64,000 bases of DNA from positions 1,664,001-1,728,000 of the forward strand of contig OY761556.1 of NCBI GenBank assembly GCA_963664705.1, given 5' to 3'. The stretch comes from Acidobacteriota bacterium. GTDB taxonomy: Bacteria; Acidobacteriota; UBA6911. Below, one piece after another: positions 1-21,613 of the stretch; positions within the stretch are counted from its first letter, which is position 1, and each line of letters opens with the position of its first letter. Both the position numbers and the translations under genes were made by a program. The notes beneath the pieces are model-generated. The model made no database searches and was not told the DNA's origin. It saw nothing but the letters and a program-made list of their open reading frames with translations.

Positions 1-465
1 ATGGCATCGGATTCGTTGAAAAGAGAGCCGGACACACTGGCTCAACCATTGTTGGCCCGCTTGCAGAAATCGCCGGACGACCCTGTTTTGCTGGCGGAAA
101 TAGGCAAGATCTATTATCAAGCCCGACAGTTCCACACTGCGGCGGAATATTATAAGAACTCTGTGAGGGTGAAGCCGGATACGGGGACGCTGGTAAAGCT
201 TGGAGGCGCCCATCATTTTGATGGCGATGACGATGCGGCCCTCGGTGCCTGGAATCGCGCGCTGCAACTCGATCCCACTAACGCCGATGCACTGTTTAAT
301 ATCGGTTTTGTTCAATGGCAGGAGCGGGGCAACCGGAAAGAAGCGATTGCCGCCTGGCAGAAGTTGCTTAGGACAAATCCGAACCATCCGAAACGGGCTC
401 AAGTGGAGGAGCTTCTCACGCAGGCAAAGCGACACGCGGAAATTCCTGCAAGTGGGAGCGACTAG
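1..465 (+). CDS. TPR-repeat protein (CcmH/NrfG-like TPR region), possibly 5'-partial
   Basis: Three TPR-like units (LAEIGKIYYQ..., LVKLGGAHHF..., ALFNIGFVQW...EAIAAWQKLL..P); lies directly upstream of a multiheme cytochrome gene. Confidence 0.75.
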   Translation: MASDSLKREPDTLAQPLLARLQKSPDDPVLLAEIGKIYYQARQFHTAAEYYKNSVRVKPDTGTLVKLGGAHHFDGDDDAALGAWNRALQLDPTNADALFNIGFVQWQERGNRKEAIAAWQKLLRTNPNHPKRAQVEELLTQAKRHAEIPASGSD

Positions 466-559
466 CGCGCGCAAGTGCCCTGTATAGGCTTTGCGGTCGA
501 GAGTACAATTTGGTAAAGCGGAATTTGTTTGCGCGGCCGCCCGCGGAGGAGGGAGCACT

Positions 560-1918
560 ATGCGATCATTGATAAGGGTCGGATCGATCCTGTGCATTAC
601 AGTTGGGCTGGAAATGCTGATGATGGGCAACGCCGCAGATCGCAAGCCGAGCAAGCCCAAGACTGTCCCCCAGCAGTTCTGGCAGACCTCCACCTGCAGA
701 GGATGCCACGATGAAATCGTCGAACAACACCTGGCGTCCTCCCATGAGATGTCTTTCACTAATCCCGCATTCCAGGCTCAATATAGAAAGGACCTGCTGC
801 CCAAAGCCGGGACAGATCCGCAACTGAATGCGGATGCGCGCGAATGTATTGCCTGCCATGAACCGATCGCCTATGCCACAAATGGCCCAAAGTCGGTGTC
901 ACTCCTGGAAATCGACCCGAAAATGAATGGAGTGACATGCGATGTCTGTCACACCATGACCGGATTCCGCGATGGCAAGGCGCAAAACGGCAACTATATC
1001 CTGGAGCCGGGCGACAGAAAGTTTGGTCCCTTTAAGGGACCGGGAGATTGGCACCATATTTATTCAGAACTCCAGACCAAAAGCGAAATTTGCGCCGTCT
1101 GCCATGAAGCGGTCAACCGGTACGGGCTCAGGATCAAATCTACTTTTGCGGAATGGCAGGAGAGCACCTTTGCCCAACAAGGGGTGCAATGCCAAGATTG
1201 CCATATGAACGTTGACGGATTCCTTACGGCAGGAAAACCCCGGTTCGCTTCCGGCAAAGCGGCAGCCATGACTCTTGGAAGCGCTCCGCAGCGGGACCGG
1301 CTGTATACGCACCAGTTTCCCGGTGCTCATTCCAAGACGCAAATCGAGGGCGCTATCACTCTGGATATTGAAGCGGATGCCCGCAACAGCCAACCGGATC
1401 ATGCGCTTGCTCTGAGCGTCACGGTCGATAACTCGCGCACGGGACACAGCATGCCATCCGGCAGCGCGGATCTCCGGTTGCTGTGGATGGAGGTGGTGGT
1501 ACGGATCGGGAACGACCCTGGAAAGCCTGCCGTCATCATAGATCCCGAGGGACAGGACGAATCGAAGGCGTACTCTCTCGCAGGGCGCGGGAAGTTTGAT
1601 TCCATGCTTCTGGGATCGGAGGTTCCGAAGGGAAGCCGCATCTATCGCGCCATTTTCACTGATGGTACCGGGCAAGCTACGCTCGATTCATACACGGCCG
1701 TGGCCAAGCTGTTCGATAACCGGTTGAAAGCTGCGGAGAAGCGTAAGGAATCCTACCGATTTGCCGTGCCGGAAGGAGCAAAGGGGGATATTACGGTCAA
1801 AGCAACGCTGAAGTATCTGCCCTATTCCAGCATATTCACTCGGCGATTTGGGTTGCCTCTCCCTGAGGCAGTCATCGTCGCGCAGCGGGAGATTCATTTG
1901 GCTGCACAGGACCGCTGA
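560..1918 (+). CDS. Exported pentaheme c-type cytochrome (c554/c552-4-like heme domain plus C-terminal beta-rich domain)
   Basis: 5 CXXCH motifs (CRGCH, CIACH, CDVCH, CAVCH, CQDCH); hydrophobic N-terminus; GGAGGAGGGAG RBS before ATG 560. Confidence 0.85.
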   Translation: MRSLIRVGSILCITVGLEMLMMGNAADRKPSKPKTVPQQFWQTSTCRGCHDEIVEQHLASSHEMSFTNPAFQAQYRKDLLPKAGTDPQLNADARECIACHEPIAYATNGPKSVSLLEIDPKMNGVTCDVCHTMTGFRDGKAQNGNYILEPGDRKFGPFKGPGDWHHIYSELQTKSEICAVCHEAVNRYGLRIKSTFAEWQESTFAQQGVQCQDCHMNVDGFLTAGKPRFASGKAAAMTLGSAPQRDRLYTHQFPGAHSKTQIEGAITLDIEADARNSQPDHALALSVTVDNSRTGHSMPSGSADLRLLWMEVVVRIGNDPGKPAVIIDPEGQDESKAYSLAGRGKFDSMLLGSEVPKGSRIYRAIFTDGTGQATLDSYTAVAKLFDNRLKAAEKRKESYRFAVPEGAKGDITVKATLKYLPYSSIFTRRFGLPLPEAVIVAQREIHLAAQDR

Positions 1919-1952
1919 CGGGGCGCCTCGCTGGATGCACCGGCGTTCCGGC

Positions 1953-2088
1953 TAATGCCACATACGATTTGTCGAGAGTGAAGCCCATGGGAGTGCGGTG
2001 GCTTGCTACCGCACTCGGCGTTTATAATTTTCAAAGGCGGCGGCAAGCTGCCGCGCTCCATGGCGCCCATTCGGGGGCGCCTTTTTTA
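1953..2088 (+). repeat. REPIN/MITE-like dispersed repeat, copy A
   Basis: Colinear with 36503-36634 and 45787-45925 (tttgtcgag.g.gaag...ggagtgcggtggcttgc...tttt.aaa.g.ggc.gc..gct.ccgc.ctc.a.g...cc.attcggg); internal palindromes. Confidence 0.8.
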
Positions 2089-2312
2089 TCCCATCGCCCG
2101 GCAGCAAAATGAGCCAAAAAAATCTTTGTGGTCTTCGAGGTCTTCGAGGTTAATGGGGTTACCAATTCGCTCAAGTCAGGTTCGAAGACGCCGGCGCTCC
2201 CAGTGAGCCCCGGCATCATTCCGCATCGAGCCGAAGAGCTTCTTTACCTAACCCGCAAAATTCACTAAAGCAGGACTTGGTTGTTCAAAACCAGGTCGGC
2301 AGTTCGCTTCAC

Positions 2313-3707
2313 TTACATGTCGTGACACTTTTGGCAGGTCGCCTCTTTATTGTTGGTCAGCAATTTGGGCCCCGTCGAAGTCGAATGAGAGGCATGACAG
2401 GTGATGCAATTTAGCTCTGCCTTATCCGCCGTTGCAGCCACCCAAACGGGGTGTCTCGAGGTCGGATGCCCCAGTCTCTCATTGATAAGATTCAGTACCA
2501 CCAGTTTTTCAAATGACTTTGGGGGGACGCTGACTTTGCCGTCGAAGAGAGGATAGGGCTCACTGCTTCGAAACATCCTGGCGCCGTTCGAACCGTGGCA
2601 GGCAAGACAAAGATCCGTCACAGGTGCATATAGCTCCGTGGGGTTGTCCGAAGCGTGCGCATCGTGGCAGAAGGCGCACGATTGATTAACAGGCTCATGA
2701 ACATACTTGCCTGTGAGTTCAAATCGGGACAGCTTTGCAAAGGTCTTGGGAGGGAGGCTTACAAGACCGTTGAACAGAGGAAATGGTTGGCTGCTCTGAA
2801 CGATCTTCTCGGCGTTGGGACCATGGCAATTCATACAGATATCCCGCAACGAGACCCGCAGTTCCTTGGGAAAATCCGAGGCATGTGCATCGTGACAGAT
2901 AAGGCAGGATTTTTTTGCAGGCTCGTGTACATATTTTGAAGACAGTTTCAGATATTCCATCTTTGAGGATTCATTGTCCGTCGAAGGCTTGCCGGCTTTT
3001 GTCGTCTGCTTGGGCTGTTCAACGTGACAACCCAGGCAAAGATCCTGGGCAGGTTTTTTCAGGTGATATTCCTGGTTGGCGGCATGAGGGTCGTGACATT
3101 CCATGCAGGAGTGATCGCTCTGCGATAAAAGCTTATGCCGGCTTCCAGCGCCCGCCATTTTTGCCTTGAATTGGGTATGGCATTCATAGCAGAGCGAGTC
3201 CACCGTTGCCGCCGTCAGTCCAACCTTTCCGTTTACCGAGGCCGGGTGGCAGGCTGCGCATAAGCGCGCGGCGTAAGGACCATGCGAGTATTGGAGCAAC
3301 AGCTTTGGTTTGTCGGAAGAATGAGGATCGTGGCAGCCGGTACACCTCGATTTTCCAAGCGGCTGATTGTCATGGGCGGGAGAAAGATTTTTGCCCGCAG
3401 AATGGCATTCCATACAGAGTTCGGGCTCTTTTGCTTTCAGATAAAACTCGGGCGGCTCTTTCAGATTGGCCGGAGTAAGGCGGTTGCAGTCCAGGTGGCA
3501 GGCAACACAACCGCTTTTTTCGATTGCCGGCTCTCTGTATTTTTTCAGAGGCTCGATACTTTTAGGATCCTGGTATTTGGAGCAGCCATCCTTGATCGCG
3601 GCGTCCTGCAGAGAGCCTGCGTGTGCGGATTCAAAACAAGCCAGGATGATCAGGATACGTGCGGATTGCCTGACTAAACTCCAAGATCTGTGGACATCCA
3701 TTTTCAT
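2313..3707 (-). CDS. Exported 13-heme cytochrome c (doubled-CXXCH / cytochrome c3-like repeat type)
   Basis: 13 CXXCH motifs in the CXXCH-DPH...LCXXCH pattern; signal peptide ending SAHA. Confidence 0.9.
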   Translation of the reverse strand: MKMDVHRSWSLVRQSARILIILACFESAHAGSLQDAAIKDGCSKYQDPKSIEPLKKYREPAIEKSGCVACHLDCNRLTPANLKEPPEFYLKAKEPELCMECHSAGKNLSPAHDNQPLGKSRCTGCHDPHSSDKPKLLLQYSHGPYAARLCAACHPASVNGKVGLTAATVDSLCYECHTQFKAKMAGAGSRHKLLSQSDHSCMECHDPHAANQEYHLKKPAQDLCLGCHVEQPKQTTKAGKPSTDNESSKMEYLKLSSKYVHEPAKKSCLICHDAHASDFPKELRVSLRDICMNCHGPNAEKIVQSSQPFPLFNGLVSLPPKTFAKLSRFELTGKYVHEPVNQSCAFCHDAHASDNPTELYAPVTDLCLACHGSNGARMFRSSEPYPLFDGKVSVPPKSFEKLVVLNLINERLGHPTSRHPVWVAATADKAELNCITCHASHSTSTGPKLLTNNKEATCQKCHDM

Positions 3708-3773
3708 AATTTACATCCGCATATTTGACGGAATTGAGTTTGAGCCCTGCGTACAGACGGCATGCACGGCCTT

Positions 3774-5078
3774 TTACTGTTTTCCCGTTTTTGCTGATTG
3801 GCGGTCGTATTTCTGAACCGCATGGCAACCCGGTGCACAACTGCCTCCGGTATCGCTCTTCTCGAATTTTATCGGTAGCTTCCATGTTCCAAACGGTACC
3901 GTGGTTCCAATAAGCTGAGGAGTTGCACTGGCGTGAACCTCATGACACGAACGGCAAGTTCTGCCATGAGACGTTCGGTTGACATGAACAAAATGAAGAT
4001 TGCGGTCGCCGTCACGGAACTGGGTTGCGCTTGTCGTATGCTCTTCCGTTGCCAGAGGCGTCTCGTGACAGCGGAAGCAAAGATCATAATTTGAAATGAA
4101 GAACGGTGCGTAAAAGTTCTGTGTGTATTGATCGGTCAGCAGTCGAAAGTAGGGCGAGCCATGCGGGTTGTGGCAAGCCGAACAATTCCTGTTTTGAATC
4201 GGACCGTGCTGGTTCGGGTTTGCCGCCAGCAGTTGTTTCATATCCGCGAATTCCTGGGTTTCCGTTTTCACCGGCTTGTCGTGGCACTTAAGGCAGATAT
4301 TGAGTCCGTCGGCAAGCAACAGGTTGTTTTCCTGCGCTGCATGTGGATCGTGGCAGTTCATGCAGGCTGCATCTTCCTTGACCGGCGAATGCTTTACCAC
4401 CGCCGTCTGCTGATCGCGGAGTGTCTTTTCGTGACATTTTCCGCAAAGCCCGGGGAATGGTGCGGTCAGCATATATCGCTGATCGGACATGTGAGGAGAA
4501 TGACAATCCAGGCAGTCGGTGGAGGCTGCTTTATGCTTGAATCTCGCATTGGTGAACCGCGCCCCCATGTCTTTATGACATTCCATGCACATTTGCTGGC
4601 CGGCAACCCGAAGCATCCCCGGATTGTTGCCGCCGTGGGGATCGTGGCAGGTAATGCAAGCTCCGGCAGCAAATGGTCCATGAACATAGCTGCCTTTGAA
4701 CTGGTCCTTTTTATGACACTTGAAACAAAGCGGTTCCTTTGCTTCCACAAGGCGGGAAGGTCCTCCGTCCGGCGGGACCTGGTGACAGAAATCGCAAAGG
4801 TCCTCTTTTGCCAGCAGGCAATTTACTTTGGATGACACTACGCGCTGATGGCACTGCGTGCAGCCCTTTCCCCCCAACGGATCGTGTGGCTTGGTCGCCG
4901 GAATCGGTTTCGCAGGAGGCTTCTGCTCCTGGGCAGGAAGCGAACCGGACGATCCCAGCAGTCCAAGCAAAAAAACAGAAAGTACCAACGAGCCTGCCAT
5001 CCAGAGGTTGATATGCCGGGCGCGGCAGGAACCACGATTCGACTTCGGCTTGAATCTTAATAACGAGAAATTTTGCAT
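3774..5078 (-). CDS. Exported multiheme cytochrome c (12 CXXCH plus 1 CX3CH)
   Basis: Counted 12 CXXCH and terminal CAPGCH; N-terminal hydrophobic segment. Confidence 0.9.
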   Translation of the reverse strand: MQNFSLLRFKPKSNRGSCRARHINLWMAGSLVLSVFLLGLLGSSGSLPAQEQKPPAKPIPATKPHDPLGGKGCTQCHQRVVSSKVNCLLAKEDLCDFCHQVPPDGGPSRLVEAKEPLCFKCHKKDQFKGSYVHGPFAAGACITCHDPHGGNNPGMLRVAGQQMCMECHKDMGARFTNARFKHKAASTDCLDCHSPHMSDQRYMLTAPFPGLCGKCHEKTLRDQQTAVVKHSPVKEDAACMNCHDPHAAQENNLLLADGLNICLKCHDKPVKTETQEFADMKQLLAANPNQHGPIQNRNCSACHNPHGSPYFRLLTDQYTQNFYAPFFISNYDLCFRCHETPLATEEHTTSATQFRDGDRNLHFVHVNRTSHGRTCRSCHEVHASATPQLIGTTVPFGTWKLPIKFEKSDTGGSCAPGCHAVQKYDRQSAKTGKQ

Positions 5079-5165
5079 AGCAAAAATGACTGGATCAAAT
5101 ACTGCTCATATCATGACTAAATCACACAAAAACCTGGCCGATTTGTCCCGGGCTCAACGAAATTT

Positions 5166-6548
5166 CTATTGAGCATTGAGTTTCACCGGGTTGACACGGT
5201 CATAGGAATATTCACCATGGCATTCCGCAAGGCAGCTTCCTCCGGTCTTGGTTTTATTAAATCGGAACGAAGCCGTCCAGTTTCCAAACTGCCCTTTATC
5301 GAGAATAAGGTTGGGCTGGTTTCCGGCATGCGCTCCGTGGCAAGCCCGGCATGTCTGGCCACTTTTTTCCTTATTTACATGAAGGTAATGCAGATTGAGC
5401 CGACCGTTGCGAAAATCCGTATCTCTGTTTGTGTAATGCTCCCCCGCGATCCTCTCGGTATGGCATGAAAAGCACACGGCATATCTGGCCGGGTCGTAGG
5501 GCAGAGAAGTATCGGTCGGATAATCCGCAAACAGCAGGTTCGCATATTTTGAACCGTGAGGGATGTGGCATGAGTTACAGCTTTTGTCCGCCACCGGCCG
5601 ATGCTTGTATTTTGCCGCATCAATCTGAGCCTGGAATTTGTCATGGCATGTAACACAAAGTTCGTTCGCCGGTTTGCTGAGCAGGCGGCCATTTTTGTTG
5701 TCATGCGCTTTGTGACACTCGACGCAGGCCATTCCCTTGGTCATTGCTTCGTGCTTGAACTGGCTGGATTCCAGATTTTCTTTTATCTCTTTATGACATC
5801 CATCCAGACACAGTTCGCGCGGGGATCGGGTCAGCAACCCGGGAATACTGGAATCATGGGAGCGGTGGCACTTGGAACAATCCTCGCCGGTCAGGTGCAG
5901 CTTCTGCTCCCTGCCTCCCACAATGACAGGGCGCATTTTTTCGTGACACTGCTGGAGGCAAAGCTTGCTTCCCGTCGCGTCGAGCAGATTCTTGGCCTTG
6001 TTGCCATGGGGCCGATGGCAGGCCAGGCAATCGCCGCGGGCAGCCGGTTTATGGACATATTTTTTTGTAATCACCGGCTTTTTGTTATGGCACTCATTGC
6101 ATAGCAAGGATGCGGGCGTCTTGCGGACCTGGTACTTTTCTTCAGAGCCGTGGGGATCGTGGCACCCAAGGCACTTACCTTTTGCAACCGGGTCGTGCAG
6201 CATGTATCCCTTGGTATCCACACGCTTGTGGCATTGCAGACAGAGATTTGCTTCAGTTGCCACGATCTTGAATTTGTGGTCTGTACCCGGGAGCGGCAGA
6301 TGGCAAACGGTACATTGTCCAATCTGCAGCGGTCCATGAAGATATTTGTGCTTTATTACTGCGGGATGGCATTCTGCCGAGACACAGCTTTTAGTGGGAT
6401 CGGAGTGCTTTTGTTCTTTGGCGTGGGTCATGCCGGGCGCACAAAAGCCTCCAACCAGCAGGAAAAGCAGAACTCTAATGGCGCACAGCATTCTGCCGGG
6501 TGCAAGCCGTCCACCGTTTTCGCGAAATCCCCTATGCTTTTCCAACAC
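5166..6548 (-). CDS. Exported multiheme cytochrome c (11 CXXCH, 3 CX3CH, 1 CX4CH)
   Basis: CXXCH repeats plus CVSAECH, CLQQCH, CLDGCH, CLAECH; GTG start after GAGGA; C-terminus paralogous to 3774-5078. Confidence 0.9.
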   Translation of the reverse strand: MLEKHRGFRENGGRLAPGRMLCAIRVLLFLLVGGFCAPGMTHAKEQKHSDPTKSCVSAECHPAVIKHKYLHGPLQIGQCTVCHLPLPGTDHKFKIVATEANLCLQCHKRVDTKGYMLHDPVAKGKCLGCHDPHGSEEKYQVRKTPASLLCNECHNKKPVITKKYVHKPAARGDCLACHRPHGNKAKNLLDATGSKLCLQQCHEKMRPVIVGGREQKLHLTGEDCSKCHRSHDSSIPGLLTRSPRELCLDGCHKEIKENLESSQFKHEAMTKGMACVECHKAHDNKNGRLLSKPANELCVTCHDKFQAQIDAAKYKHRPVADKSCNSCHIPHGSKYANLLFADYPTDTSLPYDPARYAVCFSCHTERIAGEHYTNRDTDFRNGRLNLHYLHVNKEKSGQTCRACHGAHAGNQPNLILDKGQFGNWTASFRFNKTKTGGSCLAECHGEYSYDRVNPVKLNAQ

Positions 6549-6560
6549 GAAAGCCGTTCC

Positions 6561-8012
6561 TCACTGTTCTTTATGAACCATGAAATCAAACAAGGGCGGT
6601 TTCTCTTCCTTGAGCGCCAGTATAGTGTGGCACAGCCGACAATCGGCACGGACCGCCTTTCCCGCACCATTGATGTGATTGTTGCCATGACATCGCAGGC
6701 ATCCCGGATTGGCTGTAGTGTGTCCGATGTGATTGGGATAGGTTCCCCAGCTGATGTTCATTCGGGGCCAGACATTCCGGCTGTAGATTTCCTGGACTCG
6801 ATCTGCCGCCCGACTCAGCAGCGCACGATCGGGATTTTCTTCCGGATGGCCGAGGTACCAATCCAGCAGAGCTGCGCGCGCTGCCTTGTCTTGGATTGCC
6901 GCATCGTCAAACTTCCTCGCCAGCACCTCTCCAGAAGCCTTCCTCAAATACGGGACCCGCTGTAATGCGGGATCCTGATTGAACATGTCATCCAATTCGC
7001 CTTCGGCCGTACGGTAGATGTGGGTGGGTCGATTATGACAATCGACGCATTCCATTGTCCTTTTGGGAGCCGCCGCGATTTGTTCGTTTGAAAGCCGAAG
7101 CCCGGTAAAACGGTATTCTACCGGCGGGGAAGAGCCTTTCTCAAGCCTTACCCAAGGGATATCCCTGCGATCTCCTTTTTCCGATATGAAAGTCACGCGG
7201 TTCCCCTGGCTAACGTGCCAGTGAATTCCACCGGCCCTTCCTCCCTCGGCGCCCGGACCTCCCACTTTAAGCAGCAGGGCCGTGTATCGTTTTGTGTTAT
7301 TGCGATCAGTGTCGTAGTGGGCAATGATCTTGAGCTTATCCCCGGCAAACTTTTCCGGCCAGTGGCACTGTTCGCAGGTTTCCCGTGAAGGCCGCAGATG
7401 TTCAATCGGCGTCGGAATCGGCCGGCTATAGGTCCCGAAAGTCACGGCATAGACCTGGCGCAGTCCGGATATTTTGGAGCGCACGAACCAGGATGCACCG
7501 GGACCAATGTGGCAGTCGACGCAAACAACACGTGCGTGCGGTGACCGCGTATATAGAACATATTCCGGTTCCATTACTTTGTGGCAGAGCAGCCCGCAGA
7601 AGCTGGCAGAATCCATGTATTCAAAACCAGCGATGACAATAATCAATGTCAGTACGACGTTCGCAATACTGAAAAGGATAAATGCAATGATCCGGTTGCG
7701 AACATCCTCTTCACCGGAGAGACGTCGCAGGATCTCGGCAATGGATTTTTCCCGGAGGCTCGGGTCCTCAATGCACTGTTTTTTGAACGCGAGGTAAACA
7801 CCGATCGGAATGAGAGCCAGGCCACCAAAAAAGAAGGAGGGCACAAGTATCAGGAAGAGAATTCCGGCGTAGGCACTGTCCGTGCGCGCAAAAATGGTGG
7901 CACCGGTATAGATGACGGCTGATATGGTCCCGAAGGTGACCATATAGCCCCCCAATTTGGCAAGGGGATGGCAAGTAATGACCCCAACAAGCAGCCGGTA
8001 CAAACGCCACAT
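6561..8012 (-). CDS. NapC/NirT-family membrane-anchored multiheme cytochrome (putative quinol dehydrogenase) with extra TM helices and C-terminal heme domain
   Basis: About 3 N-terminal TM segments; FCGLLCHKVMEPEY...SPHARVVCVDCHIGPG...SKISGLRQV typical of NapC/NirT; 5 CXXCH plus 1 CX3CH; AAGGAGA RBS. Confidence 0.85.
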   Translation of the reverse strand: MWRLYRLLVGVITCHPLAKLGGYMVTFGTISAVIYTGATIFARTDSAYAGILFLILVPSFFFGGLALIPIGVYLAFKKQCIEDPSLREKSIAEILRRLSGEEDVRNRIIAFILFSIANVVLTLIIVIAGFEYMDSASFCGLLCHKVMEPEYVLYTRSPHARVVCVDCHIGPGASWFVRSKISGLRQVYAVTFGTYSRPIPTPIEHLRPSRETCEQCHWPEKFAGDKLKIIAHYDTDRNNTKRYTALLLKVGGPGAEGGRAGGIHWHVSQGNRVTFISEKGDRRDIPWVRLEKGSSPPVEYRFTGLRLSNEQIAAAPKRTMECVDCHNRPTHIYRTAEGELDDMFNQDPALQRVPYLRKASGEVLARKFDDAAIQDKAARAALLDWYLGHPEENPDRALLSRAADRVQEIYSRNVWPRMNISWGTYPNHIGHTTANPGCLRCHGNNHINGAGKAVRADCRLCHTILALKEEKPPLFDFMVHKEQ

Positions 8013-8197
8013 GCGGTTCTCCTTTAGTAAATCAACTCATGCCTGCACGCCGCTTGAGTGTCGGCGTCACTCGATTCAAGGCCTCGCTGTCCGATCGGAG
8101 CGACGGAATGAATGCACTGCATTTCTTTTTTTTCTTAACGACCCGAAAAATCAAATATTCCAACCGGCATTGCGCGCCTGGGGAGACATAGCTCCCA

Positions 8198-10348
8198 TTA
8201 TTCGCGGGGCGCAACACTGGCAGGAGGGCGTTGAGAGCGCTGCCATTGTTTCCAACGCTCCCGGTCCGACCCAAAATCTTCCCGTGTGATCCGCTTCAGC
8301 GCCCACACAGCTTCAATGCGAACGGTCTCGCGTCTGTCTTCCAGGGCGGCGATGAGCAAGCCGACCGGACCCGGAGAAGCCATTTTCCCAAGAACCCGTA
8401 CGGCAGACAGCCGAACATCCTCGTCCGGGTCTTCCAAGGCTGCGCCAAGAACGGACACGATGCGCGCGTCGTCGATAGACCCCAAGGCACGAATGACCAT
8501 CTGGCGTATCAATGGATCTTTATCCTTGAGGGCAGCGGCAAGGGGTTCCACAAGTCTGGAATCCCTGAACTGAGTGGCTGCCTCGATTAAGCCGATCCGG
8601 ACGCGTGGCACCGGGTTCTTCAGCGCCGCCCCCAGTAGATTCACAGTCTGTGGATCCTTGCTGTTTTTCAGCGCCTGGAGCGCGCTGTTACGGGCCCGGG
8701 CATTGTCATCGTTCAGTGCGGCAATCAGCGAAGGCAGAACCTGCGGACCTCCGATTTGTCCCAAGGCAAGGATGACGGCTTCACGGACGTCGGGGTCCGG
8801 ATCCTTCTGAAGAGCGATTAGGGGTTCGATCGCACGAAGATCCTGAATCTGCCCCAGTGTTTGAATCACTACTCTGCGTGTGACGGGATTGTTTTCTTTC
8901 AAAATCAGGAGGAGCCGGTCCACCGCTCGCCGGTCTCGGACTTGGCCCAAAGACTGAATGATCCCGTCGCGTCGGCGCCCGGTACTATCCTTCAATGCGG
9001 CAAGCAGGAGGTCGATAATGCGGGGATCATCTAAAGTTCCCAACGCCACAATCGCACCGCTGCGTGTCTGCGGATTCTCGTCATCCAAAACGGTGATGAG
9101 CGCTTCCGCAAGTCGGCGGTCTTTGACGGGAGGCAATGCTTGCACAACCGACTTTTTGGGTCCGGCATCGCCATTTTTCAAAACAGCGACCAGGGACTCC
9201 ACGGCCGGTTCACCCATTCTCGCCAGGGTTTCAGCGGCCTCGGCGGCTGGTGAAACGGTTATGATCTGGCGCGGAATGCCACTATCCACATAAATCTGTT
9301 TGTCGATCCTTGGATCGTAAAGAGCTTCCAGGAGCGCTAATACCGCTCCCTGCGCGGATGATCCTGATTTCCTGAGCATAACAGCGGCGTCGGCTTTTGC
9401 ACTTGCGTCGCTGTTCCTGAGCTTTTTGATCTGCGCCCGCACCACTGCCGGTGCCGCGTTCTCCCATTCCGTCAAGTGTTTTTTCAGTTGTGGAGAGCTT
9501 CTGAATAAAGATTCATCTCCGAGGGGTTTGATTTCCCTGGAGTCCTTGACTTCAAGCATCCTGGCGCCCAGTTTTCGAGCATCCACATTCTGGTTTGCAG
9601 AATCGGAGCTGTGAGCGTCGCGAATGTGTGCCAGGGCGATGGTGGCATGGCTGCGGACCTGGCTGTTTTGATCTTTCAGCAGGCTGCCAAGCGGATCGAC
9701 AGCGCGCGGATCTTGAATATTTCCCAAAGCTTCGGCCGCATTGGAGCGGACATCGTCATTCGGGCTTTTTAATGCGGAGATAAGAGGGGCAACGGCTGCC
9801 GAGCCCAGTTTCGCCAATGCCGTAGCCGCAATTTTCTGAAGCAGCGGATTGGTGTCTTGCAATGCAGCCATGAGGGGATCGACGGCGCGCGGATCCTTGA
9901 ATTCGCCGAGGGCCTCCGCGGCTCCATAGCTGACAAGCGAATCTTTGATTCTGAGAGCGGCAATCAGCGAGTCTATGGCACGGGGATCCCGAATATCCTT
10001 CAGCGCTATTGCCGCGCGGAAGCTTACGGTGGGATCTTCATCCTTCACTGCCGTGATGAGGGAGTCGACGGCGCGCGGATCCTTGATCCGGCCAAGAACG
10101 ACTGCCGCCTCCCGGCGAGCATTCACATTCCGGCTCTTCAATGCACTAACCAAAGGATCGACCGCTGCGGAACCCGCTTTCAGCAGGGAATCGGCGGCCT
10201 CTGCGCGCACAGCTCGATCCTCGTCCTTTAACCCATCCAGCAGGGTGGTGATTGGAATGTCCTGACTGTGACCAATGCATAAGCATCCCTGTGCAAATGC
10301 ATACAGAAACAGCATGCCCAAAACCCGGATTTGAATTTGCGCTTTCAT
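8198..10348 (-). CDS. Exported HEAT (PBS-lyase/EZ-HEAT) repeat protein
   Basis: Many ~31-aa repeats (LI.AL.D.D..VR..AA.ALG.I.DPRAV.P); N-terminal signal-like segment. Confidence 0.85.
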   Translation of the reverse strand: MKAQIQIRVLGMLFLYAFAQGCLCIGHSQDIPITTLLDGLKDEDRAVRAEAADSLLKAGSAAVDPLVSALKSRNVNARREAAVVLGRIKDPRAVDSLITAVKDEDPTVSFRAAIALKDIRDPRAIDSLIAALRIKDSLVSYGAAEALGEFKDPRAVDPLMAALQDTNPLLQKIAATALAKLGSAAVAPLISALKSPNDDVRSNAAEALGNIQDPRAVDPLGSLLKDQNSQVRSHATIALAHIRDAHSSDSANQNVDARKLGARMLEVKDSREIKPLGDESLFRSSPQLKKHLTEWENAAPAVVRAQIKKLRNSDASAKADAAVMLRKSGSSAQGAVLALLEALYDPRIDKQIYVDSGIPRQIITVSPAAEAAETLARMGEPAVESLVAVLKNGDAGPKKSVVQALPPVKDRRLAEALITVLDDENPQTRSGAIVALGTLDDPRIIDLLLAALKDSTGRRRDGIIQSLGQVRDRRAVDRLLLILKENNPVTRRVVIQTLGQIQDLRAIEPLIALQKDPDPDVREAVILALGQIGGPQVLPSLIAALNDDNARARNSALQALKNSKDPQTVNLLGAALKNPVPRVRIGLIEAATQFRDSRLVEPLAAALKDKDPLIRQMVIRALGSIDDARIVSVLGAALEDPDEDVRLSAVRVLGKMASPGPVGLLIAALEDRRETVRIEAVWALKRITREDFGSDRERWKQWQRSQRPPASVAPRE

Positions 10349-10389
10349 TTTTCTCTACAATACATGAACATAGCCCGCTCAGCCAGCGA

Positions 10390-10422
10390 TTTGTGCAACA
10401 TTGTGGCACAATCCCCACAATC
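10390..10422. promoter_or_regulatory. Putative operator in the divergent promoter region
   Basis: 10-bp periodic ttgtg/cacaa elements: ttgtgcaaca-ttgtggcaca-atccccacaa; includes palindrome attgtg-g-cacaat. Confidence 0.3.
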
Positions 10423-10629
10423 GGTCTCACATGTCCTGCCATGCATTTTATCAGACGACCGGAGAAATGGTATGGTTCCGATGTAGGGGCAGGAAAGCGA
10501 GATCAGCGGTTTGTCGCCCGGGAGTGCCGGAGGCCCGGCGGGGGCACCCAAACTCTCCTTCTCATAAAGAGCTTCTTCGTATATTGTTAAGAAAAATCGT
10601 GTGAGTCGCTCCGCAAAACAAAAAAGGTT

Positions 10630-11658
10630 ATGAGAGATCGGCTAACGGAAGACAATGAGAATCCCCCTCGGCGATTCTCTTACGGTTCAGGATGGGCTTT
10701 GAGCCTGAAGGTCTTGCTTGCCTTCGTCCTGGCTTGTGGCGTCATCGCCGGGTTTTATAACTTTATTAAGTCAACATATATCGACCGACGGATTTCACGG
10801 TTTGTTCCGCATACATGGGTAAATCTTGAAGAGCGGGATAAGGCTGCGCCGGAAGTGACCGATCCTGTGGAGAGCGCGGTATTCAGAGTTGCGATCGCTC
10901 CCATGGTTTCGCCTGAAAAGTCGCACGAAATGTACCAGGGCCTTATCGACTACGTTGCAGAGAAACTGGGGCGAAAGCCTGTGTCACTTTACAGGCCGAC
11001 ATATTCGGAAACCAACGACCTTGTCCGCTATCAAAGGTGCGATATTGCAGTTGTCTGTACCTATCCCTTTATCCGGGGTGAGCGCGAATTCGGGATGCAG
11101 GCGCTGGTGGTACCCCAAATAAAGGGGGAGACCACGTACCAGTCTTTTATCATTGTGCCTCAATCCAGCCCGGCCAGGTCGCTGTCGGATCTTCGGGGGA
11201 TGCGATTTGCCGCCGCGGACATCGTTTCGACAACAGGTTGGCTATTTCCCGCCATGAGCATCATGAGCGCGGGGGAAAATCCAAATCACTATTTCGGGAA
11301 TCTGGTGCTTACCGGCAGTCATGACAAGTCGATTCAAGCGGTCCTGGATGGATTTGTTGACGGCGCCGCCGTTCATGGAATCGTCTATGATCAAATGCTT
11401 GCCGATAATCCTTCAATTCCGAAGAAGATAAAGATAATCAGCAAATCCCCTCCTTTTGGCATCCCTCCGGTTGTGGCACACCCGGGGATGGATCCAAATC
11501 TCAAGAAGGCAGTCGTTTCGATACTTCTGGATATGCACAATAATGAGCGTGGCAGAAAGATATTGAATACGCTTCAGATAGAAAGATTCGTTGTCCCCGA
11601 AAGGGGGCTCTTTGGCGACCTCCGGCAGGCAATCGGAAAGCTGGAAGGATGGAAGTGA
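10630..11658 (+). CDS. PhnD-fold oxyanion-binding sensor protein (AioX/ArxX/ArrT-like), membrane anchored
   Basis: RPTY...DIAVVCTYPF...TYQSFIIV...STTGW...SHDKSIQAVLDG..DGAAVHG...SPPFGIPP; N-terminal TM; coupled to downstream kinase. Confidence 0.8.
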   Translation: MRDRLTEDNENPPRRFSYGSGWALSLKVLLAFVLACGVIAGFYNFIKSTYIDRRISRFVPHTWVNLEERDKAAPEVTDPVESAVFRVAIAPMVSPEKSHEMYQGLIDYVAEKLGRKPVSLYRPTYSETNDLVRYQRCDIAVVCTYPFIRGEREFGMQALVVPQIKGETTYQSFIIVPQSSPARSLSDLRGMRFAAADIVSTTGWLFPAMSIMSAGENPNHYFGNLVLTGSHDKSIQAVLDGFVDGAAVHGIVYDQMLADNPSIPKKIKIISKSPPFGIPPVVAHPGMDPNLKKAVVSILLDMHNNERGRKILNTLQIERFVVPERGLFGDLRQAIGKLEGWK

Positions 11659-13130
11659 TGCTGCGGAGGTTTTTAAAGGCATTCTCCTGGCGAGTTCTTT
11701 CGATTCCCATTTTCTATAAAATTGTGGGAATTGGTCTGCTGACGGCTGTTCTGTTCGGAGCGGTAACGCTTCTGCAAACGCGCGCTAGCACCTCCCAGAT
11801 TTTATATCAACTGCTCGAGCAAAGGGCCATTTCCATTGGCCGATCGCTTACCGATGCCATAGAGCGTCCAGCCAGTACCGGCGATTTTTTCGCGGTTAGG
11901 CAGCATTTGAACCAGGCAAAGAAAACCTCGCCTGAAATTCGATACATCATAGTTCGCGATCGGGATGGAAAGGTGGTCGCCTCCACCTTTGAAAAGAGCG
12001 TTCCCGCAGATCTCTCCAGGATAGGCAACAAGACCTGTCCTCCGGAGTGCACGGCGCAGACGCTTGCGAGCACGGAAGGGCTTATCATGGATGTCCGATT
12101 TCCGGTGGTTGGAGGCTATGCCGGAACCATCCAGTTGGGCGTACTCGACAGAATGATTAACCGTGAATTGGGCATCCTGACCAAGATGGTGGTCTGGGGC
12201 CTGATTCTATGCGCCGCCGTCGGCCTTTGCCTGGCTTTGTGGCTCACCGGAATCCTGACCCATCCTATTCGGCACCTTGTTGATTCGGCCAATCGAATCA
12301 GGGAAGGGGCATTTGAGACAAGGGCGCAAGTATATGCCAGTGACGAGATTGGCCACCTCGCCGTTGCTTTCAACCAGATGGCTGAAGCCCTGATGCTTTA
12401 CCGACAGGAGGTGGAAGCAAAAGAGAAGGCACGTCTTTCGCTGATTGAGAGAATCGTGCAGGTTCAAGAGGATGAGAGAAAGAGCATTTCCCGGGAGTTG
12501 CATGATCATTTGGGGCAATCGCTTCTCGCGCTGCTTCTCCAGGTGCAGGCCGGATGCCAGTGCCGTTCCGATGCATGCCAGCATGCCAATCAACCGGGTT
12601 CGCTATGCTGGAATGCCGAGAAGACGATACGGCAGATCATCGAAGATGTACACCGGTTGGCGTGGGGAATGCGCCCCTCGATCCTGGATGATTATGGACT
12701 TGATTCCGCGCTCGCCCGCCACATCGAGGAAGTCGGCAAAACCGCCGGGTTCGAGATCGATTATCAATGCACCTCTCCGGAGGGTTTGGACCGCCTGCCA
12801 AGCCGCATTGAGGTGCCGCTGTTCCGTATTGCGCAGGAAGCCATCACGAATATGATCCGGCATGCAAAAGCGGCTCATGCAAGCGTGATAGTCCTGCGGC
12901 AGCTCAACGACATTACCATGATTGTCGAAGATGACGGGCAGGGCTTTGATATGGCCGTGGTTAAGGAAAAAGGGGACGGATGCCTTGGGCTTGTGGGGAT
13001 GGAAGAACGGGTAAACCTGTTGGGCGGCAGTTTTGTTGTGGAGTCCATTCCCGGGGAAGGCACAACCATCCGGGTACGAATACCCTTAAGCGAGGAGCAC
13101 GATGCCCATAAGAGTCTTCATAGCCGATGA
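11658..13130 (+). CDS. Membrane sensor histidine kinase (HAMP, HisKA_3, HATPase; NarX-like)
   Basis: 2 TM; HAMP (DEIGHLAVAFNQM); ERKSISRELHDHLGQ; QEAITNMIRHA; EDDGQGF; GLVGMEERV; start overlaps upstream TGA. Confidence 0.92.
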   Translation: MLRRFLKAFSWRVLSIPIFYKIVGIGLLTAVLFGAVTLLQTRASTSQILYQLLEQRAISIGRSLTDAIERPASTGDFFAVRQHLNQAKKTSPEIRYIIVRDRDGKVVASTFEKSVPADLSRIGNKTCPPECTAQTLASTEGLIMDVRFPVVGGYAGTIQLGVLDRMINRELGILTKMVVWGLILCAAVGLCLALWLTGILTHPIRHLVDSANRIREGAFETRAQVYASDEIGHLAVAFNQMAEALMLYRQEVEAKEKARLSLIERIVQVQEDERKSISRELHDHLGQSLLALLLQVQAGCQCRSDACQHANQPGSLCWNAEKTIRQIIEDVHRLAWGMRPSILDDYGLDSALARHIEEVGKTAGFEIDYQCTSPEGLDRLPSRIEVPLFRIAQEAITNMIRHAKAAHASVIVLRQLNDITMIVEDDGQGFDMAVVKEKGDGCLGLVGMEERVNLLGGSFVVESIPGEGTTIRVRIPLSEEHDAHKSLHSR

Positions 13131-13755
13131 TCATGCGGTATTCCGAAGCGGCCTGCGTGCCTTGCTGGAAAAGGAATCGGACATTGAAGTGGTCGGCGAA
13201 ACCGGGAACGGGTTTGATACGATCCGGGCCGTAGTCGAAGCGAATCTGGACGTCCTGCTTCTGGATGTAACGATGCCGGGCCTTCCCGGACCGAAGGTCG
13301 CCAAGGCCGTCCTGAAGGAAAAACCCCAGTTGGCCATCGTTGTCTTGACCATGCATGAAGATGAATATTATTTACAGGAGCTTTTCCGGCTCGGAGTGCG
13401 TGCCTATGTGCTGAAAAAATCAACGGGTACTGATGTGGTGCAGGCAATCCGGGCAGCGCGAAAAGGCGAACAGTACATCGATCCCGCACTTACCGGACTT
13501 GTTATATCCTCGTACGTTGGGAGGCAACCAAAGAAGCTGAAAACAGACCGCCTGGATCTTATGACGCCCCGGGAACTTGAAGTCATGACTCTTCTGGCCT
13601 ACGGGCACACGAATGCCGAAATTGCAGATAAATTGTGTATCTCCGAACGCACGGTGGAGAGCCATCGCAACAATATCATGTCAAAGCTGGAGTTTAAGAG
13701 CCGGGCCGAATTGGTCCGCTTTGCCATTGAAAACGATATGCTGAAGCTGAGCTGA
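13102..13755 (+). CDS. NarL/LuxR-family response regulator
   Basis: IADDH, LLDVTMP, VLTMH, AYVLK receiver motifs; LuxR HTH (MTPRELEV...TNAEIADKLCISERTVESHR). Confidence 0.95.
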   Translation: MPIRVFIADDHAVFRSGLRALLEKESDIEVVGETGNGFDTIRAVVEANLDVLLLDVTMPGLPGPKVAKAVLKEKPQLAIVVLTMHEDEYYLQELFRLGVRAYVLKKSTGTDVVQAIRAARKGEQYIDPALTGLVISSYVGRQPKKLKTDRLDLMTPRELEVMTLLAYGHTNAEIADKLCISERTVESHRNNIMSKLEFKSRAELVRFAIENDMLKLS

Positions 13756-13771
13756 CTGGCTATGCCCGGGC

Positions 13772-13814
13772 TGTTGAATTCGTGGCGGGCTGAATCGCCG
13801 CCACGAATTCAACA
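13772..13814. terminator. Perfect 17-bp hairpin between convergent genes (bidirectional terminator or REP-like)
   Basis: tgttgaattcgtggcgg / ccgccacgaattcaaca. Confidence 0.7.
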
Positions 13815-13820
13815 AAAGCA

Positions 13821-14879
13821 CTAAGGCTTCAGTTTTTTGATCGCCTTCGCCACCTTCTTCCAGCGCTCTTTTTCAACCCAGCTTGCGCTATGGGCGCTTT
13901 TCAGTTCGATATAGGATGCTTCCTTGCGAATCTTGAAGTAATTCGCCAGCCGATGTGCTTCAAGGTTTCCCTGCAGGATTGCCGCCTGGACCTGACAGCC
14001 AGGCTCATTCTCATGCCGGCAGTCCCGGAACCGGCAGCCTTCCGCAAGCGACGTGATATCTTCGAAGGCAGTATCAATCCCCGAATCCACCGATAAAACC
14101 TGCAGTTCGCGCATTCCCGGCGTATCCATGATCAGGCCGCCGGATGGAAGTAGAAAAAGCTGCCGGGCGGAAGTGGTGTGGACGCCGCGTCCAGTATGCG
14201 CGTCTGTCTCTTGAATTCGCTGGTCGGAACGTCCCAGCAGTTGGTTTACAATGGATGATTTGCCGACTCCGGAAGATCCCAGGAATGCAACAGTCTGGCC
14301 CGGGCCGAGATAATTCAGGATATCATCGATACCAAATCCGGCGGTTGCACTGACTGCCAGCACGGGTATCCCGGGAGCCAGGGATCTTACCTTTCTGATG
14401 CTGGCATGAACATCAAGGCATACATCAGCCTTATTCAGGACTATGACCGGGCTTGCGCCGCTTTCGCCGGCTATGACGAGATAACGTTCAATTCGACGTG
14501 GGTTGAAATCGGAGTCAAGTCCGCTTACCAGGCATACGGTGTCCACATTTGCCGCGATTACCTGTTGGTCCATCCCGGTTCCAGCCTGCTTTCTCGAAAA
14601 GGCAGTGAGTCGAGGCAGCAGATGCCGGATAATTGTTCGATCGCTGTTTTCAGGCCGATCGGCAAGCACCCAATCCCCACATGCGGGAAGATCGCCGGAA
14701 CTTTGGCCGGCATATCGCAGAGCTCCGCTGATTTCCGCCCACACCTCCCCGTCCTCAGACAGAAGTCGATACATTCCTCGGCCCTGGAAGGACACTCGTG
14801 CCGGAATAATAGTGTCATTTTGATGTCTGGTATGGTGATTCTCGAAAAAAGAGTTCCAACCAAAATCCTCTAGATTCAA
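13821..14879 (-). CDS. rsgA: Ribosome small subunit-dependent GTPase A
   Basis: Circularly permuted GTPase: NKAD, GSSGVGKS, GVHTT, DTPGMRE, Zn site CRFRDCRHENEPGC; probable TTG start at 14879 (alternative ATG 14912). Confidence 0.92.
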   Translation of the reverse strand: MNLEDFGWNSFFENHHTRHQNDTIIPARVSFQGRGMYRLLSEDGEVWAEISGALRYAGQSSGDLPACGDWVLADRPENSDRTIIRHLLPRLTAFSRKQAGTGMDQQVIAANVDTVCLVSGLDSDFNPRRIERYLVIAGESGASPVIVLNKADVCLDVHASIRKVRSLAPGIPVLAVSATAGFGIDDILNYLGPGQTVAFLGSSGVGKSSIVNQLLGRSDQRIQETDAHTGRGVHTTSARQLFLLPSGGLIMDTPGMRELQVLSVDSGIDTAFEDITSLAEGCRFRDCRHENEPGCQVQAAILQGNLEAHRLANYFKIRKEASYIELKSAHSASWVEKERWKKVAKAIKKLKP

Positions 14880-19909: not shown

Positions 19910-21613
19910 ATGCGTAAATGGACTATTGCGCTTTTCATAGGGAGCCTTATTGTCCTGGCAAGTTTCAATCCTTGCCTGGCTCAATCGGGCAGGAAGGTTG
20001 CGGAGCCTCGGTTCAGGGTGCTCAACCCATGGGCGGAGGTGGACCCGATCGCACAGCGTGGAATCTCTCCAAGGCTGGATACGCTGGCGGGTAAGAAGAT
20101 AGGGCTCTTTTCCAACTTCAAGCGGGCGGCCCGACCCATTGTCGTGGAAGTTGAAAAGAGATTGAAGGCAATGTACCCGGACAGCGAAATCAGTTTCTTT
20201 GAGTCCCGTGGCGCCAATGTTGTGGAAACCGAAACAAAGAACCGCGAGCAGTTCAGCGCATGGGCAAAGCGTGTTGATGCCGTTGTCCTGGCGGTTGGCG
20301 ATTGAGGGTCCTGCACAAAGTTCCTCGTATATAACGGAATTGCTATCGAGGACTTTGGCCGGCCGGTTGTGCTACTGGCCAACAGGGGTTTTGTTACGGA
20401 TGCTCATTCAGCGGCATCGAGCCGAGGAATGGGCGGAATCCGCGTTCTGGGTACATCCATCCCATGCGAAACAAATGTAAAATCCGAAATTGAAGCAGGT
20501 GTTGCCGCCGCCATGCCTCGCATCGTCGAAGGATTGACCAGCGCGCTGACATCCGAAGAGAAATTTCCCAAACAGCAGATTGCCGTATCCCCGCGCATTG
20601 CATTTGTCGGAAGCTACGCGGAAGTGAACCGTTTCTTCTATAAAAATGGCTGGACCGATGGCCTTGCTATTGCGCCGCCGACGGAAACGGCCGTTGCAGA
20701 GATGATGACGGGGACGGATTTGCCACCAGGCCACATCGTAGGGAAGCTGATACCAAGGTTAGGAAAGGTCACGATTGAAAAAATTGCTATCAATGCGGTA
20801 ATGGCCGGCGCGCTTCCCACGCATATGCCGGTACTGATAGCGGCGGTGCAGGCGATGATGGATCAGCGGTCAAGGTTTGATACATTCGAAGTAAGTACTG
20901 GATCCTGGGCACCGTTCTTTGTCATCAATGGACCGATTCGGAATGATATCCATGTCAACTGTAGTTCCGGTGCACTAAGCCCCGGCAACATCGCAAATGC
21001 ATCCATTGGACGCGCCTTGGGTCTGATCGCAAAGAATATCGGCGGCGCGCGAAAAGGCGTGGAAGACATGGGTGTTTTTGGAAACCCGGGAAAATACAGT
21101 CTGGTTCTTGGAGAGTACGAGGAGGAAAGTCCGTGGGATCCGCTCCATGTCGATGGTGGTTTTAAAAAGGAAGATAGCACGTTGACATTTTTCCTGCCCA
21201 ATACGTATATCCAGACCATCCCGCGCGATACCAATGCCAAGGGTTTCGTCGAGACATATGCAAGTCTGAATCCTGGCAGCATGTCCTGCCTGCTGATCGT
21301 TCCATCTCATGCCAAAGTGCTGGCAAGCGAAGGTTGGACAAAAAAGAAAATCAAAGAATATATCCTGGAAAATTCGGCGCCGCCCTTTCCGACGGTTCAG
21401 GGCGGGCAGGGAACTCCAATCCAGCCGACCAAACTCAGCGCGGATGATCTTATGATTGTGGTGGCCGGCGGACCCGGCGCCTGGATCGGATTGTTGCGTA
21501 GTGCCGGTGGCTGGGAAAATAGTTTTGTCACAAAGAAGATACAGCTTCCGCGTGACTGGGACAAATTGGTATCCAAGTACAAAAATATTGTTCCTAACTA
21601 CGTAGGTTACTGA
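19910..21613 (+). CDS. Putative selenoprotein, UGSC family (thioredoxin-like UxxC) fused to its usual partner domain; signal peptide; Sec at TGA 20303-20305
   Basis: ORFs 19910-20305 and 20369-21613 are in frame with no stop except GAT-TGA-GGG-TCC-TGC (D-U-G-S-C); readthrough gives 567 aa; hairpin follows the TGA. Confidence 0.85.
20316..20357 (+). promoter_or_regulatory. Candidate bacterial SECIS element
   Basis: caaag-t-tcctcg...cgagga-ctttg stem starting 11 nt after the TGA; G-containing apical region (acgga) about 30 nt from the TGA. Confidence 0.65.

Follow-up and report, generated by a model that had tools for sequence, protein, structure and literature searches.

A multiheme cytochrome island of ImcH and OmcE type beside an ArrXSR-like sensor triad in an Acidobacteriota genome

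Gene content of the locus

We analysed a 64,000-nucleotide (nt) stretch of DNA from an Acidobacteriota bacterium (lineage UBA6911; GenBank assembly GCA_963664705.1, contig OY761556.1), hereafter the window, whose base 1 is position C1:1664001 of the source genome (G000), a 6.9-Mb single contig. Its beginning carries a cluster of genes for multiheme c-type cytochromes and, divergent from them, a triad encoding a substrate binder, a sensor kinase and a response regulator (Table 1). Together with an operon that runs into the window from upstream, the cytochrome genes form what we call the cytochrome island. Pfam and family scans and the list of open reading frames (ORFs) agreed with the ten ORFs, strands and families given in a preliminary description made from the sequence alone. 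A near-identical contig covers window positions 1–14200 with zero differences and may be the source DNA itself.

The earlier estimate of about 52 hemes also held. We counted 46 CxxCH motifs (5 + 13 + 12 + 11 + 5) and six CX3-4CH motifs, and the 15-, 13- and 13-heme cytochromes first described (15/13/13/6/5 over the five proteins) are a fair count. The atypical CX3-4CH motifs recur in orthologs, two of them as canonical CxxCH in the related genome G004, and are therefore probably real heme sites. The short gaps in the minus-strand block from the HEAT-repeat gene to cA (185, 12, 87 and 66 nt) are consistent with a single operon, hereafter the ImcH block. Its HEAT-repeat protein is likely a scaffold, and the corresponding gene lies directly before the ImcH gene or in its co-oriented block in G002, G007, G014, G017, G028 and G029. 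Pfam and family scans assigned no catalytic family to cA, cB or cC; cA is 31% identical to the 16-heme protein of the upstream operon, and cB has a paralog (about 62%) at C1:4913140.

The genes for the tetratricopeptide repeat (TPR) protein and the pentaheme cytochrome converge on this block. The likely true start of the TPR gene, second-last of the upstream operon, is ~175 nt before base 1, its frame being still open there; the product has a hydrophobic N-terminus (membrane anchor), and the gene follows the 11-heme gene in G005, G017, G028 and G029. Between the convergent operons, a short repeated element (window 1968–2183) is matched by many other contigs.

Table 1. Features of the locus. 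Positions are those of the window, or of the source contig where preceded by C1; PPIase, peptidyl-prolyl isomerase.
Feature	Position	Strand	Basis or remark
16-heme cytochrome, operon start	C1:1653814-1655271	co-oriented with the TPR and pentaheme (+) genes	
First NHL beta-propeller	between 16-heme and tetraheme genes		operon member 2
OmcE-like tetraheme, 353 amino acids (aa)	C1:1656800-1657861		operon member 3
SurA-like PPIase	between tetraheme and barrel genes		operon member 4
617-aa barrel protein	C1:1658928-1660781		operon member 5; no Pfam or NCBIfam match
Second NHL beta-propeller	between barrel and 11-heme genes		operon member 6
11-heme cytochrome	C1:1661851-1663716		operon member 7, then TPR and pentaheme genes
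TPR protein (CcmH/CycH/NrfG-like repeats)	1..465	+	Pfam TPR; PF23914 E 5e-10, below cut-off
Pentaheme c-type cytochrome, heme-free C-terminal domain	491..1918, likely start 560	+	5 CxxCH; PF13435; PDB 5ze8 cytochrome c552 E 3e-6
Terminator-like hairpin between convergent operons	2062..2091	+	consensus scan; terminator-like sites not above shuffles
cA, 13-heme paired-CxxCH cytochrome, predicted periplasmic	2313..3707	-	motif count, family scans
cB, 12 CxxCH + 1 CX3CH cytochrome	3774..5078	-	motif count; atypical motif conserved in orthologs
cC, 11 CxxCH + 4 CX3-4CH, MtrA/DmsE-like repeats	5166..6548	-	motifs; PDB 6r2q_A E 6e-11
ImcH-type inner-membrane hexaheme quinol dehydrogenase (CX3CH + 5 CxxCH)	6561..8012	-	PF03264, NrfH match, motif spacing
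HEAT-repeat protein, hydrophobic N-terminal segment, first gene of ImcH operon	8198..10348	-	PF13646 E 1e-98
-10-like hexamer, 8 nt before HEAT start codon	10357..10362	-	rank 9 genome-wide with triad-promoter matrix; kept in L020
Inverted repeat TTGTG-N11-CACAA, candidate operator	10391..10411	.	kept in L020 while next stretch diverges
Sigma70-like triad promoter, hexamers 17 nt apart	10559..10587	+	upstream of binder in 12/23 loci, at most 3 mismatches
ArrX-like membrane-anchored binder, PF12974, 342 aa	10630..11658	+	divergent from HEAT
sCache-HAMP-HisKA_3 sensor kinase	11649..13130	+	domain scan
NarL/FixJ-type response regulator, no AAA+ domain	13102..13755	+	PF00072 + PF00196 (LuxR/GerE-type)

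An ImcH-type anchor in the inner membrane

The protein first taken for a NapC-type anchor fits, by its sequence features, ImcH, the Geobacter and Geothrix quinol oxidase for metal reduction. PF03264 covers its residues 108–196 and NrfH (PDB 2j7a) matches residues 113–219 (E 4e-7). Like ImcH of G. sulfurreducens (GSU3259) and its Geothrix homolog, it has ~480 aa, N-terminal membrane helices, a NapC/NirT region and a CX3CH motif by the membrane; this motif (CGLLCH at 139, beside the membrane domain) is kept in all nine ortholog ORFs that cover it. The heme motifs at 139, 164, 213, 322, 438 and 458 are each offset by 5–6 residues from the published positions in Geothrix fermentans ImcH (134, 158, 207, 316, 433 and 453; PMC6295460), the five CxxCH thus having equal spacing by this comparison of motif positions. 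The same source describes ImcH as having three helices, a CX3CH and 5–9 CxxCH, with 19 homologs in Acidobacteria and genes often beside other cytochrome genes, as here. Two hydrophobic segments are strong (45–77 and 106–134); counting against the assignment, the third, near residues 17–43, where Geothrix ImcH has its helix 1, is weak (about 1.2).

Two further differences concern the hemes, six here versus seven in Geobacter, and the operon, which here includes the HEAT gene and three 13–15-heme cytochromes, whereas imcH of G. sulfurreducens is monocistronic (PMC4251993). In that bacterium, ImcH is an inner-membrane cytochrome required for Fe(III) citrate reduction and linked to high-potential extracellular acceptors (PMC4251993). 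ImcH homologs occur in 26 of 51 genomes of the family, and nine genomes of the genus, including G000, hold one at ≥65% identity. The quinol-to-periplasm heme wire proposed at the outset is supported.

An OmcE-type barrel operon upstream of the window

The absence of a porin, as first reported, is true only inside the window. The gene of a 617-aa barrel protein ends ~3.2 kb upstream of base 1, in an operon that runs into the TPR and pentaheme genes, so that the apparent absence is an artefact of the window edge. The AlphaFold model of this protein is an all-beta barrel (pLDDT 84.8, 99-row alignment) and its C-terminal Phe is nearly invariant. The preliminary description had advised looking upstream for an MtrB-like porin, and the top Foldseek match of this predicted barrel is MtrB (6r2q_B, E 4e-10, template modelling (TM) score 0.50, 10% identity), followed by TonB-dependent barrels. 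With such a barrel in the upstream operon, we rejected a porin-less module. The comparison with Shewanella MtrCAB extends to cC, which resembles MtrA over part of its length, whereas the propellers, the PPIase and the OmcE-like subunit set the present locus apart, as do the modest TM-score and identity of the barrel. Matches to the TIGR03508 decaheme family reached 115–155 bits, below the cut-off of 192.

In its smallest form, an OmcE cluster encodes OmcE itself, a large barrel, a pair of multiheme cytochromes and a pair of beta-propeller lipoproteins (PMC13712944). Since the seven-gene operon upstream of the window holds the gene types listed in section 8 of that paper, it matches the OmcE cluster layout: as in Desulfuromonas soudanensis and G. 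sulfurreducens, one operon encodes a large barrel, two multiheme proteins, two propellers and a tetraheme that has four additional His. The 11-heme protein matches OmcE structures 9yuq and 7tfs at its N-terminus (E about 1e-16), and the tetraheme matches 9yuq with E 2e-5 as a single sequence and E 6e-7 as a profile; its four extra His (His38, 52, 193 and 279) are kept in ≥90% of the 112 rows aligned. It differs from the published tetrahemes, to which it is weakly similar, in size (353 versus 218–232 aa). The PPIase gene and the second, closer OmcE-like domain, fused to the 11-heme protein, are further differences, and the five phyla named in section 7 of PMC13712944 do not include Acidobacteriota. 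The tetraheme model gave the OmcE assignment no help, with no Foldseek match at E 0.001 and a best VIA-align Z of 3.0; being of low confidence (pLDDT 58.5), it makes these searches uninformative about the fold.

The barrel was found in 7 of 401 genomes of the phylum, and the OmcE-like gene occurs in 7 of 51 family genomes. In all four barrel loci examined, which belong to another family (4 of 6 non-self loci), the seven-gene order is identical, and the DNA fetched for them contains no triad. A close described system within the phylum is EET1 of peat Acidobacteriota, a porin-scaffold-cytochrome cluster expressed in situ (bioRxiv 10.64898/2026.05.27.727921), which likewise combines a porin and multiheme genes in a syntenic cluster and for which OmcE-like models are mentioned. 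It is reported for Terriglobales and UBA7540, and its main text does not refer to ImcH, NapC or a propeller; going by the main-text description, EET1 is likely identical with the upstream barrel operon and may already cover it. Because the anchor fits ImcH and the barrel operon is of OmcE type, the island probably represents a published kind of extracellular-electron-transfer machinery. The suggestion of an undescribed respiratory module is not supported, given the upstream barrel, the ImcH fit and the published operon layout.

Conservation of the island

The barrel operon and the ImcH block are neighbours in six genomes (G000, G005, G014, G017, G028 and G029). In G028 and G014, the barrel operon and the pentaheme gene are accompanied by a convergent cA-cB-cC-ImcH-HEAT block as in G000, with the TPR gene called in the former and not in the latter; G005 shares this convergent arrangement as far as its contig end. 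In G017 and G029, which carry many frameshifts, the ImcH block runs in the same direction as the barrel operon and has a 9-heme, a 4Fe-4S, an NrfD and a second 9-heme gene, in this order, between HEAT and ImcH. Since G028 and G014 have the full layout without the triad, the island is a conserved unit that does not need it. A block at C1:4906892-4914405 of G000 is paralogous, with a second HEAT gene followed by 9-heme, 4Fe-4S, NrfD, 9-heme and 12-heme genes. In G002, a hexaheme cytochrome upstream of HEAT (L079:1591-2424) has no match among the window cytochromes.

An altered ArrXSR-type triad

The triad had been described as arsenite-sensor-like (AioX/ArrT). Its kinship with AioXSR and ArrXSR stands; the arsenite sensor of AioX type was rejected by match scores (binder E 1e-50 to ArrX, E 7e-26 to AioX) and pocket residues, which indicate an ArrX-derived variant. 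As in ArrXSR of Chrysiogenes arsenatis, AioXSR and ArxXSR (PMC5908839), a PF12974 binder, a kinase and a regulator share one operon, here without an ABC transporter. The regulator consists of a receiver and a GerE helix-turn-helix only, which fits ArrR, also a non-AAA+ FixJ-like protein, unlike the sigma54 AAA+ activators AioR and ArxR (PMC5908839).

The differences lie in the binding pocket, the kinase and the surroundings. AioX, ArxX and ArrX have in common Tyr88, Cys106, Tyr131, Ser161, Ser163, His192 and Asp210 (AioX numbering; PMC5908839). The binder keeps the Tyr, Cys, Tyr, Ser and His (Tyr125, Cys143, Tyr170, Ser200 and His231) and has Thr202 for Ser163 and His249 for Asp210. In the best 120 of 280 binder homologs, most sequences retain these five residues; Thr replaces Ser163 in 119, and at the Asp210 site 109 have His and 4 have Asp. 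The Asp was found in none of 28 readable loci of the close clade versus 32 of 35 readable distant homologs, the reading of the most distant rows depending on pairwise alignment and that of G029 being unreliable because of frameshifts. An adjacent molybdoenzyme, the usual target of such triads, was likewise seen at none of the 29 close loci (0 of 7 of those of at least 6 kb) versus 20 of 36 distant ones (19 of 32); L033 (same record as L057), L050, L052 and L053 are excluded from these tallies. The ten molybdoenzymes scanned beside distant homologs are ArrA-, TtrA- or PhsA-like. The original remark that no Mo reductase lies nearby was correct; G000 has 12 PF00384 matches elsewhere, none of them ArrA, and ArrA was found in none of 30 genus genomes, the control genome G451 scoring 1247 bits.

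The kinase carries a periplasmic CPPxC motif (130–134) in all 14 genus-clade sequences covering the site versus none of 11 outside the clade. It also has a Cys-rich insert in the hairpin of its dimerization and phosphotransfer domain (303–320), of which a three-Cys version occupies the tip in 9 of 12 sequences and partial versions occur in two near outgroups. In some binder copies (G007, L021 and L030–L032), the Cys or a Tyr of the pocket has been lost. The triad occurs in 8 of 51 family genomes, all within the source genus.

Since both the pocket Asp and an adjacent molybdoenzyme target are missing, the triad does not belong to the ArrX type proper. By sequence, it is best described as a new, orphaned ArrXSR variant, a putative ArrXSR descendant whose pocket changed and whose molybdoenzyme target was lost; we found no description of this sensor variant in the open-access literature. 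The swapped Asp and the lack of ArrA in the genus also favour the early idea of a non-classical ligand. In AioX, Asp210 hydrogen-bonds a phosphate oxygen, and pocket residues alone do not fix specificity (PMC5908839). From general binding-protein chemistry, its replacement by His would favour a fully deprotonated anion. Asp206 of HtxB was considered as a precedent and set aside; it apparently occupies a different position, in the hinge (PMC6629693), and is kept as a general analogy.

More distant triads were seen elsewhere. A second, distant binder of G002 (33% identity, Met at the Asp site; L019:199-6241) comes with a kinase and a sigma54-type activator, after which lies a multiheme cytochrome gene. 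Five genomes of the phylum (L138 and L140–L143) have distant triads that include a sigma54-type activator; next to them are genes for a 10-heme cytochrome and for a large molybdoenzyme that resembles the TtrA-like enzyme of L046. Archaeal records (L065, L068 and L069, two of them titled Methanoperedens) contain ArrX-like binders with large kinases after them, and no molybdoenzyme was seen there.

Association of the triad with the island

That the triad controls the cytochromes, as first proposed, is about as likely as not. On the positive side, copies of the triad lie at island edges and co-occur with ImcH. The head-to-head HEAT-triad layout of G000 was seen in one other place, the metagenome locus L020; at L034 the triad is head-to-head with the 16-heme gene, in G017 and G029 it lies two or three genes downstream of the island, and in G005 it is beside a 12-heme gene. 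Across 30 genus genomes, seven have both the triad and a close ImcH, one the triad alone, two ImcH alone and 20 neither (Fisher p 1e-4; p 0.005 among the 19 genomes of at least 4 Mb). A single clade of the five island-linked binders, a group named after a first tree, was rejected (p-AU 0.02), which suggests that adjacency to the island was acquired or retained in two or more lineages.

The evidence for a dedicated switch in the 280-nt region between HEAT and the binder (10349–10629) is mixed. The triad promoter travels with the triad between gene contexts, and it alone exceeded shuffles in the operator search. The -10-like hexamer before HEAT is also found in G014, which lacks the triad. The palindrome lies ~40–65 nt before the HEAT start; the genome has six TTGTG-N11-CACAA dyads, the same count as for other spacings, and four of the six sites are intergenic, those other than the present one not preceding cytochrome genes. 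Window positions 10349–10440 are collinear with the 3'-terminal part of a small cytochrome gene, still readable in G002 (L079:2685-3173) and decayed in G017, G028, G029 and G000; heme-motif codons appear to have drifted into the -10-like hexamer. The triad-promoter matrix found nothing notable upstream of the 16-heme, OmcE-like and second HEAT genes or of six distant molybdoenzyme operons, and a sigma70 scan gave fewer sites than shuffles (3 vs 8.8).

Five observations speak against control of the island by the triad. First, no triad follows HEAT in G028 or G014, nor did searches with binder and kinase find one anywhere in these genomes (95% and 99% complete); a synteny search, the test that the preliminary description had set itself, thus gave a divided answer, the triad not always lying beside cytochromes. 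Second, corrected for kinship, the co-occurrence with ImcH has p 0.5, the independent pairs (~2 same, 0 opposite, 2 uninformative) being too few; the RpoB tree excludes G007, G010 and G015 (no match or a partial match only). Third, in G002, G007 and G009 the triad lies elsewhere, behind an NfnAB-like/ferritin-domain operon, a setting repeated in seven metagenome loci (L023, L024, L025, L037, L038, L041 and L052). Fourth, the palindrome overlaps the decayed cytochrome gene end, where G002 and G017 retain a legible heme motif. Fifth, no operator common to the island promoters rose above shuffles (inverted repeats and 8-mers; 22 binder-upstream and 10 island-upstream regions).

These observations make it a serious possibility, to which we give somewhat less than an even chance, that the triad moves about as a passenger, bringing its own promoter, and either regulates other targets in trans (for instance the NfnAB-like/ferritin operon or a distant molybdoenzyme) or is decaying, while the island is under other control. 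Besides islands without triads and triads without islands, the travelling promoter, the moderate tree support placing the G000 binder among Nfn-linked copies, and the pocket residues lost in some copies are in its favour, and G000 holds candidate targets elsewhere in a Tat-type 820-aa PhsA-like enzyme and a 1147-aa dimethyl sulfoxide (DMSO)-reductase-II-type enzyme. However, seven of the eight triad genomes carry a close ImcH, the adjacency to the island is found in at least two lineages, and no shared operator was seen upstream of the Nfn/ferritin or molybdoenzyme alternatives either. Moreover, in G000 the Nfn locus is ~4.4 Mb away from the triad, and the ferritin-domain gene ~170 kb. These two genes (796-aa NfnAB-like, C1:6065412-6067772; 211-aa ferritin-domain, C1:1845865-1846500) are far apart in G000 and adjacent in relatives; they match the two parts of PRK12775.

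Other redox loci in the source genome

G000 has 34 ORFs with at least three CxxCH (324 motifs in total), and genes elsewhere in it, located by the WWD motif, are presumably of heme-lyase type. Very large multiheme ORFs lie at C1:4817197-4820448 (43 CxxCH), C1:2504952-2509318 (28 and 26 CxxCH) and C1:4702571-4705669 (10 CxxCH). A heme-free ORF of 568–636 aa, which may be a porin, adjoins the first two sites, and G000 may hold further porin-cytochrome conduits. The DMSO-reductase-II-type enzyme lies at C1:4712599-4721825 with Fe-S, 7-heme and cytochrome b-like genes and resembles a periplasmic nitrate reductase or nitrite oxidoreductase; a 484-aa 5-heme and a 173-aa 4-heme protein (C1:4310829-4312819) resemble an NrfA/NrfH pair. 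Within the window, two 414-aa ORFs (20369–21613 and 62784 onward) with very similar N-termini are apparent paralogs.

A proposed pathway and its sensor

We favour, with moderate confidence, the view that the cytochrome island is an extracellular electron transfer pathway and that the triad is a repurposed ArrXSR which possibly switches it on. Gene content, heme counts and the layout shared with relatives are direct observations, the barrel fold is predicted, and the ImcH assignment is by matching features. By analogy with ImcH and OmcE of Geobacter, electrons probably flow outward, to acceptors that are insoluble or humic, and a filament may be involved. The ImcH-type cytochrome would oxidise quinol and pass the electrons to the three 13–15-heme periplasmic carriers (cA, cB and cC), from which they would reach the 16-heme/barrel/OmcE-type system and then the extracellular acceptor, with the TPR, PPIase and HEAT proteins acting as putative maturation or scaffold factors. 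The regulator would be phosphorylated in response to ligand on the binder or to the redox state of cysteines in the kinase and, once phosphorylated, would activate the weak HEAT-imcH promoter from the 280-nt intergenic region. For this last activation, the chances seem evenly balanced. As the island exists without the triad, such control would in any case be optional.

Alternatively, the ImcH block might serve periplasmic reduction or storage independently of the barrel operon, feeding soluble acceptors via an NrfD/4Fe-4S/9-heme module or acting as a heme capacitor. The insertion of that module between HEAT and ImcH in G017 and G029, its paralogous counterpart in G000 and the wider distribution of ImcH homologs than of the OmcE-like gene (26 versus 7 of 51 family genomes) agree with this possibility. 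We nevertheless regard it as unlikely, given the adjacency of ImcH block and barrel operon in six genomes, the published role of ImcH with high-potential extracellular acceptors (PMC4251993) and the lack of a catalytic family for cA, cB and cC. That the triad still senses arsenate or arsenite, inducing cytochromes for arsenic respiration or for arsenic release from iron minerals, is improbable, because, even though ArrX is the best solved relative of the binder, five of seven pocket residues including the Cys are identical and ArrR is a similar non-AAA+ FixJ-like regulator (PMC5908839), the Asp210 ligand contact conserved in AioX, ArxX and ArrX is replaced in most close homologs and ArrA is missing from the genus.

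The signal of the triad is probably neither arsenite nor arsenate. A further-reaching scenario for a repurposed ArrXSR would run as follows: in one Acidobacteriota lineage, the system lost its reductase, exchanged the pocket Asp for His and gained redox-type cysteine motifs in its kinase, and now responds to an environmental cue, either an oxyanion in deprotonated form or the redox state of the periplasm, by switching on an ImcH-to-OmcE nanowire pathway. We regard this full scenario as less likely than not.

A major part in the extracellular respiration of peat has been proposed for Acidobacteriota (bioRxiv 10.64898/2026.05.27.727921), and how a cell decides to build electron-export machinery is poorly known. 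At this locus, genes for an ImcH-type quinol oxidase and for periplasmic carriers adjoin a barrel operon of OmcE type; as this machinery is of a described kind, the value of the finding rests mostly on the sensor. The latter is small and expressible, consisting of the 342-aa binder and the kinase together with the 280-nt intergenic region, and no culture of the organism is needed to test its ligand and target. If the full scenario is true, a repurposed ArrXSR would give the extracellular respiration of an uncultured anaerobe a defined input signal.

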